In this document: piece after piece, positions 16,889 through 56,555 of the stretch
How the letters are laid out: every line of letters begins with the position of its first letter
Numbering within the stretch: position 1 is the first letter of the stretch
DNA from: Eledone cirrhosa
Lineage: Eukaryota
DNA length: 64,000 nt
Assembly: GCA_964016885.1 (NCBI GenBank)
Contig: OZ024753.1
Span: 46,314,001-46,378,000 of the forward strand
Reading direction: 5' to 3'
Made by a program: the position numbers and the translations under genes
Notes under the pieces: model-generated
Databases searched by the model: none
Told to the model about the DNA's origin: nothing
Seen by the model: the letters and a program-made list of their open reading frames with translations, nothing else

Positions 16889-17423
16889 AATGATTTCATT
16901 TATTGGCCTAGGGCCGACATGTAGGGGACATAAGTGAGATTATGTTCACATATTTTGCCCCAACCTGCAAAGAATTCATTTTTGTCGATTTTTTTAAAAT
17001 TGGTTTCTCTTTTTTTTTTAGTTTTTGTTCTCAAAGAATTTTCTCTTGATTTTAAGTGTCTGCACATATTCACATATACTACAGCAGTTCTCTACCCTTG
17101 CTTGCCTCCCCTCTCTCTTTCCAAAAGACTTGAAAGGGAGAGGAAATGGAAAGATATAAATAAACTGACATAGTGACCCCTTCAGATTCAGAATGGGATT
17201 TTGAACATCAACATCAGAATGATAGATGTGAAACCACATTGGCAGCATCAACATTAACAATACTCATGTCCTCCACCAACAATAGAACTCCCCACTGTAG
17301 AAAAAAGCCCCATCACCACCAGCACAGCCAACAACAACAACAACAAAGGCAACATCAACAACAACAATGGCCACAAGTATATTATAATGATAACAATAAA
17401 AAACCTGTGACCAAAAAATACTG

Positions 17424-19103
17424 TGTTATGATGAGCAATTGCAAGGTCTATTATCCACTGTGAAACAGTTCAGTGATGATATTAAAATGGAGTTTGGACT
17501 AGATAAATGCGCCAAAGCCACGTTCGTCAGAGGAAAGCTGCTGAAAAATTCAGACATTAATCTTGATCAAGAGAATGTGAAAAGAGAACTTGATCAAGAA
17601 GAAACTTATAAATGTCTAGGTGTTTGTGAAGGAGACACAATCAAGCACTTGACAATGAAGGAAAGGATAAGGAAGGAATGTTACCGCTGAGTAGGAACAA
17701 TTCTAAGATTGGAGTTAAATGCAAGGAATAGGATCGATGCCGTAAACACGCTTGCCATACCAGTAGTAACCTAGTTTCAATGTCATCAACTGGTCAAGCA
17801 CAGAAATCCGTAGGCTCGATATGAAAATTAGAAAATTCTTAACCATGCACAGTATGCATCACCCTAATGCAGATACAGATAGAATATATGTCTCGAGGAA
17901 AGAAGGAGAACATGGATTAATCCAGTTAAATATTTCTTTAAAAACTGCAATAATTGGATTATCCACATATCTAAGAGAAGCACATGATTGGATGATCAAA
18001 CTTGTTTTGAAACATGAAAACAACAAAAGATCATACTCCATTACAAAAGATGCACAAAGATACAGTAATGAACTATAAATTTCAGAAGTTCCTTTTACTG
18101 CTGAACTGAAAAACACAGAAAAAGCAAAGCAGGTAAAAGTAACTGCAAAGAAAGAACTGCTACAGAAACTGGTTAAGAAATGACAAGAAAAGCCTCTGTA
18201 TGGAAAATACCCACAAAGAGCTAACAATCCTGATGTTGACAAAACTTTAACCCATCAGTGGTTGGCATCCTCTGGTCCAAAATTGGAGACTGAAGGACAG
18301 ATTATATCAGCACAAGATCAGTGTCTGCCAACAAAAAATTATCAAGCCAACATCATAAAAAATGGATGCAACCCATTATGCCATGCATGTAAAAAACATC
18401 CCGAGACCATTGATCATATAATTTCAATGTGCAGTCCTATAGCTTCAACCGAATAACTTAACAGGCATGACAGATCTGCACAATACATACATTGGATAAT
18501 GTGTAAGCATTTTGACCTGCCCCATCGAAAGAATGGGTGGGAGCATCAACCACCTCCCGTACTTGAAAAAGGTCACATTTCAATTCTGTGGCATTTAGTG
18601 TCCAAACAGACCAAAAAATAGATGCAAATAGACTTGATATAATACTGAAGGAGTTTAAAAAGAGGGTATGCCTGCTAATTGACATGACTGTTCCTATAGA
18701 CAAGAATGTATCGATAAAAACATTTGAAAAATTGAGCCAATATAAAGACCTGGAAATAGAGATTGAAAAAATGTGGAAGTTGAGAGCTAAAACAATACTA
18801 GTGGTTGTAGGTGCTCTAGGAATAATACCTAAGGGGTCTAATGATTACTTATCCCAAATCCCAGGAAACCCGCATATAGAAGAAATATTTAAAAAAAGTA
18901 CTAATGGGTACTGCCCATATACTAAGGAAGATTCTGTTGATATAAGTATATCACAAATATAAACACCTAAAGATACATGTGTGTGTGTGTGTGTTCTTTC
19001 TGGAACATGGCAGACCTTGCTGTCTCTTGAGGTCACTAGTTGTGACTTGGTGATAACTCATATGAACATAAAGCAAGATAAATGAAATGATAATAATAAT
19101 AAT
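17424..19103 (+). mobile_element. 5'-truncated, decayed non-LTR retrotransposon with RT end, CCHC finger and restriction-like endonuclease (R4/Dong-like)
   Basis: Consecutive broken ORFs: FSDDIKMEFGLDKCAK, ETYKCLG, QIISAQDQCL, CHAC..ETIDHIISMC, RLDII..LIDMTVP..EKLSQYKDL..VVVGALG. Ends in (taa)n. Confidence 0.85.
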
Positions 19104-45223: not shown

Positions 45224-45714
45224 TCGTGCGTGTTTGTATTAGATTTCTCTATCTGCGTGTTTCCGTGTAAATGTGTCAAAGAGGCAAACATCTAGAACTT
45301 GATGTTTGCTTAGTATTTCGATATTAAGTTTATCTGTCTGTGTGTCTCTAAGTGCTTCCTGTTATGTATATTGTGTATAAAAAATATGGAAATCTAGTAG
45401 AAATTGTGCTGAAGTTCCATTTCTCAGTGATTCTACTGACATTCCAACAGGTATTTCCATCTCTTTAGGTTTCTTTGTTATATTTTAATATCTCTAATTA
45501 CTTCCTTCTTCACATTTGCTCTATATTATTTCTATTCCGTTTCTCAATTTGATTGACGCTCACAATAAGTGATCGATATTCTATATGTTCATACTGCACT
45601 TACTTTTCACACTGCACTTTTATCTATAACTTATCGGGTAGAAGAGTTAAATCATCTCCACCGGTCTAACAACATCATCATTACCCAGACATTTTTAGCC
45701 AGTGTTGGATAAAC

Positions 45715-45935
45715 CAGCAGGCGGGAGTGAAGGACATAGTCGAAACCATGAAGAAGGTCAAACATAGATGGGCTGGCCACATCACTCATTTCAGAGACAA
45801 TAGGTGGACTATTGGAGTGACAGAGTGGACACCAAGGCTGTGGAGAAGAACTAGAGGGCGACCAAAAGCCAGATGGTGCGATGATCTGACCCTCACGGGG
45901 CCCAATATGGTCAGAGATAGAAAGCGGTCAACCAA
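45715..45935 (+). mobile_element. RTE-clade LINE C-terminal fragment
   Basis: KHRWAGHITH..DNRWT..VTEWTP..RTRGRPKARWCDDL. Confidence 0.8.
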
Positions 45936-46027
45936 TTGGGGACTGTTTATAGTATTTCAAACCAGGTCGCTTCAATCCACCAGTCATGGAGGAAGCCAAC
46001 AAGGTCAAGATTAACAGCACAGAATAA

Positions 46028-46690
46028 ATTTGGAAGTAGGTTTATAATTTTCATTGTACTTAGAAGTAGTTGAAAGAATCATAGACTGTGGTGATCCTGG
46101 TCTGAAGTTCGATCCATTGTCGGAGTAGGGTTCTCGGTAAACCTTTACGTTTTTTTTCTATGGGATGTAAATTAAAACTGAAAGAGATTACATGTACCTC
46201 TTGACCAGGATTGAACCCAAGACCAGGATCTCCACCGTCTCAAGTACCTACCGGCAACTGAGACAGCTACGAAAACCTTATGAAAATTCATACTTATAAA
46301 CCTACTTTCAAAATTTTCAAAACAAGGTGTTGTGGTGTCGTTCATGTCTTTCCTAATGTTATTGCTCCTACTTAAGGTCGACTTCTAAATCATTTGGGTG
46401 TTGTATAAACTACATCCTCGTTTTGTTTCTCATCTATCTAGACTATATTTTAACCTGTAATCAATGTTTCATGTCTGTTGCACCTCATTTCTCCCCTCCA
46501 TCCTCTCTCTTCTTCTCTCTCTCTCTCTCTCTATCTTTCTCCATTTCTCTCTCTCTCTCCCTCTCTCTCTCTCTCTGTGATATTTTAATCTACTGACTTG
46601 GGCTTACCTTATTCATATACATATATATATATATATGTTTTTGCATGTCAGTTAGATTCAAACTTACAGTGATTGGCATTATACATATAT
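46028..46690 (+). mobile_element. Third copy of the tRNA-armed fold-back element plus shared downstream flank
   Basis: Matches 8997-9395 and 9879-10040, without the CRE insertion. Confidence 0.8.
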
Positions 46691-46997
46691 ATATATATAT
46701 ATATAAAAACAAATAACGAAACGAAATTAAATTTCGTTTCGTTTGTAACTCACTTTTGTATGACTGACGCTTAAACAATTAAGTTAGAAGTGTACATCCA
46801 CATATGTATACTGAAATACTAGTATGCATATAAATACACACACGTATACATATGTAGATGTACCGAGTTTTTCACTGGACACTTTACTGTGAGTGTTCAG
46901 CTAGTCTGTATGTAAACACACAGACGAACCGGTTTTTAGAGTCATACTGGTTTTCGAGGAAACACCTTTCCTCTATTCTCCAGAGGGCCAGACAGGA

Positions 46998-47040
46998 ATA
47001 TTGGACTAGTTTCGATGTTGTTACATCTCATCAGCAATAT
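46998..47040 (-). ncRNA. Type I minimal hammerhead ribozyme (inverted copy)
   Basis: Exact reverse complement of 47420-47462. Confidence 0.9.
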
Positions 47041-47419
47041 AACCCATCCTCCGGCCCCTCTAGAGAATCGTAAAAGCACATATCGTTATATGCTTTTTCT
47101 ATGAAAATTAGTAGTGGGCAGACTAATTTGCATAGAGCGTGAGTACGTACCGGTTCAGCGGAAGCGATAAAAACAAATAACGAAACGAAATTAAATTTCG
47201 TTTCGTTTGTAACTCACTTTTGTATGACTGACGCTTAAACAATTAAGTTACAAACGAAACGAAATTTAATTTCGTTTCGTTATTTGTTTTTATCGCTTCC
47301 GCTGAACCGGTACGTACTCACGCTCTATGCAAATTAGTCTGCCCACTACTAATTTTCATAGAAAAAGCATATAACGATATGTGCTTTTACGATTCTCTAG
47401 AGGGGCCGGAGGATGGGTT

Positions 47420-47462
47420 ATATTGCTGATGAGATGTAACAACATCGAAACTAGTCCAATAT
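47420..47462 (+). ncRNA. Type I minimal hammerhead ribozyme, intact core
   Basis: atattg-CTGATGA-GATGT-aaca-ACATC-GAAA-CTAG-TC-caatat. Stem I 6 bp, stem II 5 bp, palindromic stem III segment ACTAGT, predicted cleavage after GUC at 47456. Confidence 0.9.
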
Positions 47463-47683
47463 TCCTGTCTGGCCCTCTGGAGAATAGAGGAAAGGTGTTT
47501 CCTCGAAAACCAGTATGACTCTAAAAACCGGTTCGTCTGTGTGTTTACATACAGACTAGCTGAACACTCACAGTAAAGTGTCCAGTGAAAAACTCAGTAC
47601 ATCTACATATGTATACGTGTGTGTATTTATATGCATACTAGTATTTCAGTATACATATGTGGATGTACACTTCTGACTTAATT

Positions 47684-47748
<65 letters not shown>

Positions 47749-47758
<10 letters not shown>

Positions 47759-48144
47759 TAAACGGAATAGAAAATGCTGACAAATTGTTCACAGTTGAAA
47801 AATGGTTTAATTAGGAATAAAAGAGTATTAGTAATTGTATGGGTTAGTATTCAGTTGTGGTTTTAAGTTTTTACCGGTTGCGCATATCTAAATGCTTTTC
47901 AAAAATAATTTTGAGATAGAGTGTCCGTGTTGTTTGCTCTGATCAGAGCAAACAGCACGGACACTCTATCTCAAAATTATTTTTGAAAAGCATTTAGATA
48001 TGCGCAACCGGTAAAAACTTAAAAACTTAAAACCACAACTGAATACTAACCCATACAATTACTAATACTCTTTTATTCCTAATTAAACCATTTTTCAACT
48101 GTGAACAATTTGTCAGCATTTTCTATTCCGTTTACCAATATATA
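47749..48144. repeat. Spacer-less palindrome, about 195-bp arms, with a degenerate hammerhead
   Basis: Centre gctctga|tcagagc at 47942/47943. The right arm has an 8-nt duplication (aaaaactt). Relic ttt-TTGAAAA-GCAT-ttagat-ATGC-GCAA-CCGG-TA-aaa at 47980-48017. Confidence 0.9.
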
Positions 48145-48171
48145 ACAACTTGTGTTACACCTCTATTCTTT

Positions 48172-48213
<42 letters not shown>

Positions 48214-48261
48214 CTTCGAGAACAAGACTGACATGCCCAGCAGGATTGGAAGTGTTATCAC

Positions 48262-48700
48262 GATGTAGGATCAGTCAGCTGGAATTTGCAGACGACATCG
48301 TATTAGTTAGTTCGTCAGAAGATGCACTTGATAGGTTTGATGCCGAGTGCTGCACAGCTGGAATGAAAATCAGGGCTGTGGAAACTGAGACACTCGTTCT
48401 CTCAAGGAAGCCTGTGCAATACATTCTACATGTGAATGGAATTCCACTGAAGCAGAGGGATAGTTTCAAGTATCTCGGGGCTGTGTTCATGAGTGACGGA
48501 ATGCAGGAGACTGAATTAATTGCAAGAATTGCAGGAGCTGGTGCAGTAATGTGCCAGCTTCTGCATTCGGTCATGAAAAGAAGGGAGGTAAGTGTAAAAA
48601 CTAAACTCGATATCTTTAATATCAGTATTCTTACACAGCCTTAACTATGGTCATGAATCATGGGTAATGAAAAAATACGATCGCGAATACAAGCGGTCAG
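48262..48700 (+). mobile_element. RTE-like reverse transcriptase fragment
   Basis: ISQLEFADDIVL..GMKI..TETLV..SFKYLG..ARI. Confidence 0.8.
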
Positions 48701-56365: not shown

Positions 56366-56403
56366 TTTTTAAATCCACTGTCAATAAAGACACCAGGATT
56401 TTT

Positions 56404-56460
56404 TTCATTCTGATGAATGAAAGCAATTTTTGTTGCTTTCAAGAAACCACTGGTAAATAA
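56404..56460 (+). ncRNA. Type I hammerhead ribozyme motif
   Basis: att-CTGATGA-A-TGAAAGCAA-tttttg-TTGCTTTCA-A-GAAA-CCACTGG-TA-aat. Stem II is 9 bp. Followed by AATAAA and an AT-rich tail to (TA)n. Confidence 0.75.
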
Positions 56461-56555
56461 AATAATTATCTTATGTTATTTATTACATAACTAATAAGCT
56501 CTGTAACCTACATAGAGCACTCTTTTTTCCTGGAGCTTTCCGACGGAATTACTTC

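Follow-up and report, generated by a model that had tools for sequence, protein, structure and literature searches.

The closest described systems are the metazoan non-LTR retrozymes (Cervera and de la Pena, 2020, PMC7229834; Li et al, 2026, bioRxiv 10.64898/2026.07.22.740005) and the EN+ Penelope-like elements (PLEs) with an inverted pLTR and a tail (Craig et al, 2021, PMC8557442; Arkhipova et al, 2013, PMC3846280; Frangieh et al, 2024, PMC11167929). As far as the available sections of these papers go, a route from RNA circle to tandem cDNA and mobilisation by PLEs have already been proposed for retrozymes (PMC7229834; bioRxiv 10.64898/2026.07.22.740005), with the circle-templated model standing as a stated hypothesis (PMC7229834; PMC4209133). 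For PLEs, head-to-head structures (PMC3846280) and a tail on one end only (PMC8557442) are on record. In vitro, both strands are extended and the tail marks a pair of internal sites at which the RT starts, and insertion by a lizard PLE was unaffected by hammerhead mutations, making the ribozyme dispensable in that study (PMC11167929). Such findings bear on how animal retrozymes return to the genome and on what use hammerheads are to PLEs.

We analysed a locus at 46703-47688 of the window (the whole 64,000-nt stretch of Eledone cirrhosa DNA under study) that has features of both systems. Like metazoan retrozymes, it belongs to a family of non-coding tandem units of low GC content with a type I hammerhead each, a highly self-paired predicted circle, thousands of copies and PLEs in the same genome; its short palindromic helix III is as in axolotl retrozymes. 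The unit measures 464–470 nt, against 170–400 nt in PMC7229834 and within the 51–972 bp of bioRxiv 10.64898/2026.07.22.740005. Published retrozyme circles were shown by northern blot, whereas those considered here are predicted from sequence, and Xenopus families have pLTR homology (bioRxiv 10.64898/2026.07.22.740005), of which we found none in comparisons with two PLE families. In their available sections, these two retrozyme papers do not describe arrays in head-to-head arrangement, a pair of fixed start sites, a preference for (TA)n, arms that are clonal or a genomic skew towards A>G; nor did the main texts of mostly non-subscription literature yield an account of a retrozyme with two-site ends, with arms that are clonal or with traces of editing. 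Like EN+ PLEs, insertions have an inverted 5'-truncated copy, a one-end tail and microsatellite targets, with both strands apparently cut and extended and two internal RT start sites defining the tail; unlike them, they have no ORF, a tail of 69–74 nt rather than 30–40, arms made of many whole turns of a small unit, and a canonical rather than minimal hammerhead. L1 twin priming likewise joins two target-primed cDNAs head-to-head via microhomology, but here both primers lie at fixed sites, the cDNAs overlap in sequence and poly(A) is absent. The kind of element is thus already known in animals, and it is the insertion anatomy that is unusually informative.

Searches covered the 3.0-Gb assembly that contains the window. 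Unit positions (u) follow the hammerhead sense; the reference unit U is the reverse complement of 46703-47166, which places u464 at 46703 and the predicted cut at u163/164 (Table 1). The structure described in the first-pass annotation of the window was confirmed. The direct repeat (46703-46786 = 47167-47250) is 84 bp with 0 mismatches and a period of 464, the inverted arms (46772-47214 and 47246-47688) agree over 443 bp with 2 mismatches (46785/47675 and 46864/47596) and overlap at the reported AGTTA, and the (TA)n flanks on either side and both named internal hairpins are all in the sequence. The reported lack of a protein also holds, as the longest ATG frame on the 464-nt circle is 29 aa in sense and 71 aa in antisense; the RT plus GIY-YIG ORF of an autonomous PLE is absent from the unit. 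Some interpretations changed. First, the 84-bp redundancy is not a fixed terminal repeat but a mere stopping point of copying, with inner ends that fall all round the unit and a length that varies between loci. Second, the inversion, which had been attributed to template switching, is better explained by a head-to-head junction of two cDNAs that were each target-primed, given that the outer ends both lie at fixed sites. The (TA)n flanks hide any target-site duplication. Elsewhere in the window, frames at 45670-46011, 48213-48641 and 17400-18959 resemble what we take to be decayed LINE-type reverse transcriptase fragments.

Table 1. Coordinates of the retrozyme insertion and its immediate surroundings in the window.
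Feature	Position	Strand	Remarks
(TA)n target, left	46682..46702	.	
Arm A, 1.18 units	46703..47250	-	hammerhead sense on - strand; outer end at fixed site A (u464)
69-bp tail between start sites A and B	46703..46771	-	on one end only
Hairpin within the 69-bp tail	46715-46743		
One 464-nt unit (reference U)	46703..47166	-	
Type I hammerhead	46981..47052	-	mirror of the + copy; predicted cut after C47004
84-bp start of second turn ("terminal redundancy")	47167..47250	-	
AGTTA microhomology, head-to-head joint of the two arms	47246..47250	.	
Arm B, 0.95 unit (u417-464, u1-395)	47246..47688	+	outer end at fixed site B
Type I hammerhead, GUC	47408..47479	+	predicted cut 47456/47457; 2-bp palindromic stem III
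(TA)n target, right	47689..47755	.	common to retrozyme and neighbouring element
Separate insertion, fold-back 3' end of a young candidate Neptune-type PLE	47756..48175	.	outside the unit

Each arm contains an intact type I hammerhead, as had been noted, although by the definitions in PMC4209133 it is the canonical metazoan type I form and not the minimal form of PLEs that the annotation had invoked. Read by eye, it consists of stem I (AUAUUG/CAAUAU), CUGAUGA, stem II (GAUGU-AACA-ACAUC), GAA and the palindrome ACUAGU, with a predicted cut after C47456. Rfam matched it to HH9 at 29.4 bits (E 1.6e-4), under the gathering score of 52; Rfam microRNA matches, also under the gathering score, were discarded as fold-back artefacts. 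The 91-nt hammerhead region has a folding z of -5.05 (0 of 200 shuffles equally stable), and the unit folded as a circle is 69% paired (z about -9 against 25 shuffles), with the antisense strand scoring equally well. Stem III comprises 2 bp around UA; the pairing between two copies extends over 6 bp (-6.2 kcal/mol), and folding a dimer into the double hammerhead is 9 kcal/mol less favourable than the free fold. Considering the 2-bp palindromic stem III, the hammerhead in the window probably needs a dimer for cutting. The canonical metazoan type I form is described as cutting as a dimer and sparing monomeric circles (PMC4209133). The window copy has one sense hammerhead per strand and therefore allows no monomer release via two cuts in cis, and a transcript across the locus is predicted to fold 94% paired with the hammerhead inside the inter-arm helix. 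Given the single hammerhead per strand and this long hairpin, transcripts or cut ends from the window locus are not expected, and by this modelling the copy is probably a dead-end daughter, incapable of circle production.

A single-copy unit, which the annotation had named as counting against its proposal, is not what the genome contains. Exact 33-nt hammerhead cores number at least 6,736 over two variants: 1,622 have GUC, as in the window copy, and 5,114 have GUU as cut triplet together with one stem II pair swapped (control 0 for each), making GUU the commonest. The element was rightly called young: the nearest copies differ by 2 nt from the window unit, and near-full-length matches are 96–100% identical, with one piece at 90% (40 scored among 1,095 candidate places). 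GUU loci look youngest, with a non-modal rate of 0.0018 in 21 GUU loci against 0.0051 in 71 loci. GUU is the slower-cleaving triplet. It is among the cleavable triplets listed in PMC3138052. With the window interval 46746-47250 as query, run X5 carried the GUU, stem-II-swapped haplotype, and run X4 gave a single 497-nt contig, one unit and a further 31 nt long, that is compatible with either tandem DNA or a circle; X4 had no contig over the neighbouring PLE. A sister retrozyme family (59% identical) has 10,198 exact cores by pattern search; its units are 466–520 nt long with GUA at the cut, the same head-to-head structure and a 59-nt tail (L010:2299-3202; L127-L142).

We studied 61 loci in depth: 21 distinct loci from 30 homology matches (the other 9 were set aside as overlaps or refetched), 27 from the first GUC-core matches on C1, and 13 more homology matches. 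The set was then enlarged to 101 loci, with additions chosen by A end and five by GUU core; all sets are non-random. Two apparently identical insertions 18 kb apart (L183/L184) are probably a segmental duplication, and L184 was dropped from later sets. As in retrozymes, every repeat unit has a type I hammerhead, the family forms multi-unit hammerhead arrays (the window copy alone has one hammerhead per strand), the predicted circle is highly self-paired, and there is neither a protein (the 29- and 71-aa frames above) nor an LTR, the redundancy varying in length between loci.

Variation between copies bears on the ribozyme. Predicted pairs were kept in 22/32 transmitted variants compared with 53/169 singletons (p=1e-4), in a test whose consensus-derived structure favours pair retention in transmitted variants, and the ratio of G-U to A-C was 16:6 in transmitted variants against 36:34 in singletons (p=0.09). 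Compensatory swaps were seen both in the extension of stem I (u109-110/181-182) and in stem II (u141/152), and the sister family has altered stems I and II while retaining the core, the loop AACA and ACUAGU. From this stem covariation, the ribozyme looks to be under selection. Other hammerhead-like motifs were also seen, one of them in the window itself (about 56400-56470, + strand; CTGATGA ... GAAACCACTGGT), recurring in L044 and L094, and at least three further families in flanks (L048/L051, L041/L123, L045, L092).

Insertions are head-to-head, with the hammerhead sense pointing outward into (TA)n, and their outer ends lie at site A (u464) and site B (u387-396), about 70 nt apart. Genome-wide there are 2,158 exact A-end/(TA)n junctions (control 0), and a stricter pattern gave 410 B-end junctions on the forward strand, to which this count was limited because overlapping matches inflate reverse-strand counts. 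Among the 61 loci, 47 were typed A+B, none A+A and one B+B, with 13 having one or no typed end; the lone B+B is really A+B plus an extra 31-nt piece. In a coordinate test restricted to the first 123.5 Mb of C1 (100 A and 46 B ends), 30 outward pairs lay within 15 kb, of which 28 were A+B; of the exceptions, the A+A pair is two separate insertions and the other is a true B+B. B+B insertions do occur (L176 and L134). The sister family obeys the A+B rule in 12/17 loci by eye (one B+B), and the neighbouring PLE obeys it too. The annotation had suggested looking for circularly permuted copies; permutation is not random, and copies begin at one or other of two fixed positions, both away from the cut. 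Its Penelope-type assignment agrees with these ends, which display the tail and inversion pattern of PLEs. The one-end tail, inverted 5'-truncated copy and microsatellite target are as in elements mobilised by PLEs, and the 69-bp tail is the counterpart of the PLE tail in PMC8557442 and PMC11167929.

We find it very improbable that the locus is a DNA-only repeat (satellite, extrachromosomal-circle or fold-back) or an assembly artefact in which the hammerhead is incidental. Palindromes next to (TA)n do mis-assemble easily, the window junction is unseen in independent contigs (no contig spans the locus among those compared, from 4 of 6 runs), and arrays do turn over at the DNA level. However, such an origin is hard to square with two fixed outward ends at dozens of loci whose junctions differ, with an ORF-bearing PLE that obeys the same end rule, with covarying ribozyme stems and a strand-biased A>G excess (below), and with older copies that have accumulated mutations between their arms.

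That ORF-bearing PLE is the element inserted beside the retrozyme. Its fold-back is centred on 47942/47943 and has a 32-bp tail on the right end only; the family, which is very young, has 16,704 candidates, the best 150 at 98–100% identity, and many copies have an open 784-aa RT plus GIY-YIG frame, with which an upstream frame overlaps. Observations towards its putative Neptune assignment are GIY-YIG (E 6.8e-7), the linker CX4CXXC (CX2-5CxxC in the clade) and PLE-like atlas matches. Target and end rule are in common with the retrozyme, and the family is a candidate helper. The annotation had suggested looking for PLEs that share the unit, but in the two PLE families compared similarity was only TA-rich noise, so that pLTR homology to an autonomous PLE was not seen in either. 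In 40 loci, tblastn found no RT/GIY-YIG ORF belonging to the retrozyme; its matches were all to pieces of PLEs that neighbour or adjoin it. Partial tandems are made by the neighbouring PLE, and neither strand of that element's 4.7-kb unit contains CUGANGA (scan of one locus). Hammerheads are called universal in PLEs outside Naiad/Chlamys in the available part of PMC8557442. Several copies fold back at an identical TGATCA centre (L123-L126). The second PLE family (49,421 candidates) is larger and older (L143-L156); of its 14 loci, just one showed CTGANGA close to the 3' region. Two chimeras were considered. In L173 (1570-4041), a 4-nt overlap connects a retrozyme A arm with 2.4 kb of the neighbouring PLE, which terminates in a B end; this is ambiguous and may be a template switch between two RNAs or a later deletion. 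L195 was rejected as proof of a helper: it starts in the fold-back centre of the neighbouring family and is therefore better explained by a deletion between nested elements. Similarly, a long inter-arm gap (L062) did not conceal an ORF of the element, as it holds an unrelated LINE-like insertion.

The annotation had called the RNA possibly circular. Long arms, the lack of a pile-up at the cut, clonality and the A>G skew favour a circular monomer as template. Inner ends scatter round the unit, with 2/92 in u160-168 against 1.8 expected (46 simple loci; 15 of the 61 were excluded as complex, single-armed or cut by the fetch). A cluster of inner ends at u179-192, considered as a pause or transcription start, was dropped (p=0.07 after correction). 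A deletion at the cut was found in 1 of 364 pieces crossing u163/164; in a set of 199 pieces, 75 were flagged for an indel within 8 nt of the cut, which reflected a subfamily T at u171-172 and one A at u170, and only one had a deletion close to the cut. With no excess of ends or scars at the cut, cleaved linear RNA therefore did not end the cDNAs. Arms reach about 31 units. Unit divergence is 0.87% within loci compared with 3.3% between them, and 7 of 15 arrays with at least 3 complete units are near-identical internally while 3–19 changes apart pairwise. In a 9.3-kb insertion (6.9 + 12.9 units), 16/16 complete units are identical across both arms; in a second, 13/20 units are identical, with one arm-restricted variant of 3-unit period. 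Matched units of the two arms share 3 variants and do not share 94 (21 loci; L048 has 2 variants common to matched units), arm-fixed differences number 2 in 4,724 positions (19 loci), no inversion junction is common to any two of 46 loci, and haplotypes within insertions are unmixed. This clonality, with shared and arm-fixed variants so rare, suggests that arrays were mostly multi-unit at insertion and passed through a one-unit bottleneck, for which a circle would be the simplest account.

A cleaved linear monomer, with the RT repeatedly jumping from the 5' end to its own 3' end held near by stem I, would account equally well for clonal arrays and fixed edits, and stem I with its extension does pair both RNA ends. 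We nevertheless find this improbable, as it requires hundreds of scarless jumps while stops at the cut are not in excess and haplotypes are unmixed inside insertions. Amplification at the DNA level is also visible, as higher-order periods (L049, L070, M196, M198) and as within-arm duplications in older arms. One locus, L196+L161 (G000:C1:5738094-5752750), has a B arm of about 31 units, a 346-nt A arm and mosaic higher-order variants, and is a retrozyme insertion turning into satellite.

ADAR leaves clustered A>G changes in paired RNA. Among 97 insertion-wide events in 100 loci (changes carried by every piece of an insertion but by none of its nearest relatives), A>G accounted for 45 on the hammerhead strand, compared with 11 T>C, 9 G>A and 6 C>T. 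By distinct sites the skew was 29 A>G against 10 T>C (p=0.003), or 21 against 10 when both arms were required (p=0.07), and consensus-polarised tests were weaker or null (8 vs 6; 9 vs 4, p=0.27; 35 vs 21, p=0.08). The 302 single-unit mutations were symmetric (29 A>G, 26 T>C). In L190, 7 of 8 changes are A>G, five of them in one hairpin; a 20-unit insertion has three A>G in the same hairpin, two of them common to L190. ADAR neighbour preferences lean in the expected direction, not significantly. A-to-I editing of the template is the probable cause of a skew whose strength depends on the method, and G-U tolerance could add to it. Editing is named as one possible cause of circle heterogeneity in the available part of PMC7229834.

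The same evidence bears on an alternative template, an uncleaved linear transcript reading through a young tandem array. The same PLE enzyme would use it at the same start sites, the hammerhead would be a passenger or act at some other step, and arrays would be rebuilt by DNA-level processes. The hammerhead-less neighbouring PLE makes tandems, and, together with the lizard PLE mutants, this means that circles are not needed for tandems; the main in vitro substrate was uncleaved RNA (PMC11167929), the GUU variant dominates, within-arm duplications are present, and the absence of run-off at the cut is equally predicted. However, such a template requires homogeneous sources no shorter than each daughter arm, and the rarity of inherited unit-specific variants and arm-fixed differences and the lack of any shared inversion junction speak against it. 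Editing of a linear multimer should also vary between units, yet the A>G clusters are present in every piece. We consider this alternative unlikely.

Taken from its genomic traces, the element is probably (about 70%) a non-LTR retrozyme moved by a PLE reverse transcriptase/GIY-YIG endonuclease through rolling-round copying of a monomer circle. Source arrays of at least two same-sense units would be transcribed, and neighbouring hammerheads would pair via their palindromic stem III and cut. The 464–470-nt monomer would be ligated into a circle that, having a single hammerhead, is resistant to renewed cutting, and this highly paired RNA would be partly A-to-I edited, as the strand-biased A>G excess suggests. 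The PLE protein would cut both (TA)n strands, the DNA ends priming at sites A and B, in keeping with the observed end pattern. Both cDNAs would then follow the same circle, over distances ranging from a few bases to about 30 turns and with no scar at the ligated cut, before joining head-to-head through the 0–10 nt of microhomology or short insert seen at junctions. Arrays would later turn over by unequal exchange within an arm, and the window locus would be a daughter of 1.18 + 0.95 turns. A possible but somewhat doubtful extension is that each insertion is a frozen single A-to-I-edited circle, copied by a dimeric PLE enzyme by rolling-circle from two sites, with editing as the main heritable variation and the slower GUU keeping circles intact.

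The insertions carry traces suggesting that each was copied many times round a single RNA circle, and the family offers genomic evidence that connects a retrozyme both with the two-site initiation of PLEs and with a template of one monomer. The model can be tested directly, since the start sites are named, there are two natural variants at the cut site, and the same genome has a young candidate enzyme with numerous intact frames. For genome-writing, an enzyme from nature able to write circular RNA into defined microsatellites would be of interest, and, if insertions are indeed frozen edited circles, this genome would hold thousands of single-molecule records of a viroid-like RNA.
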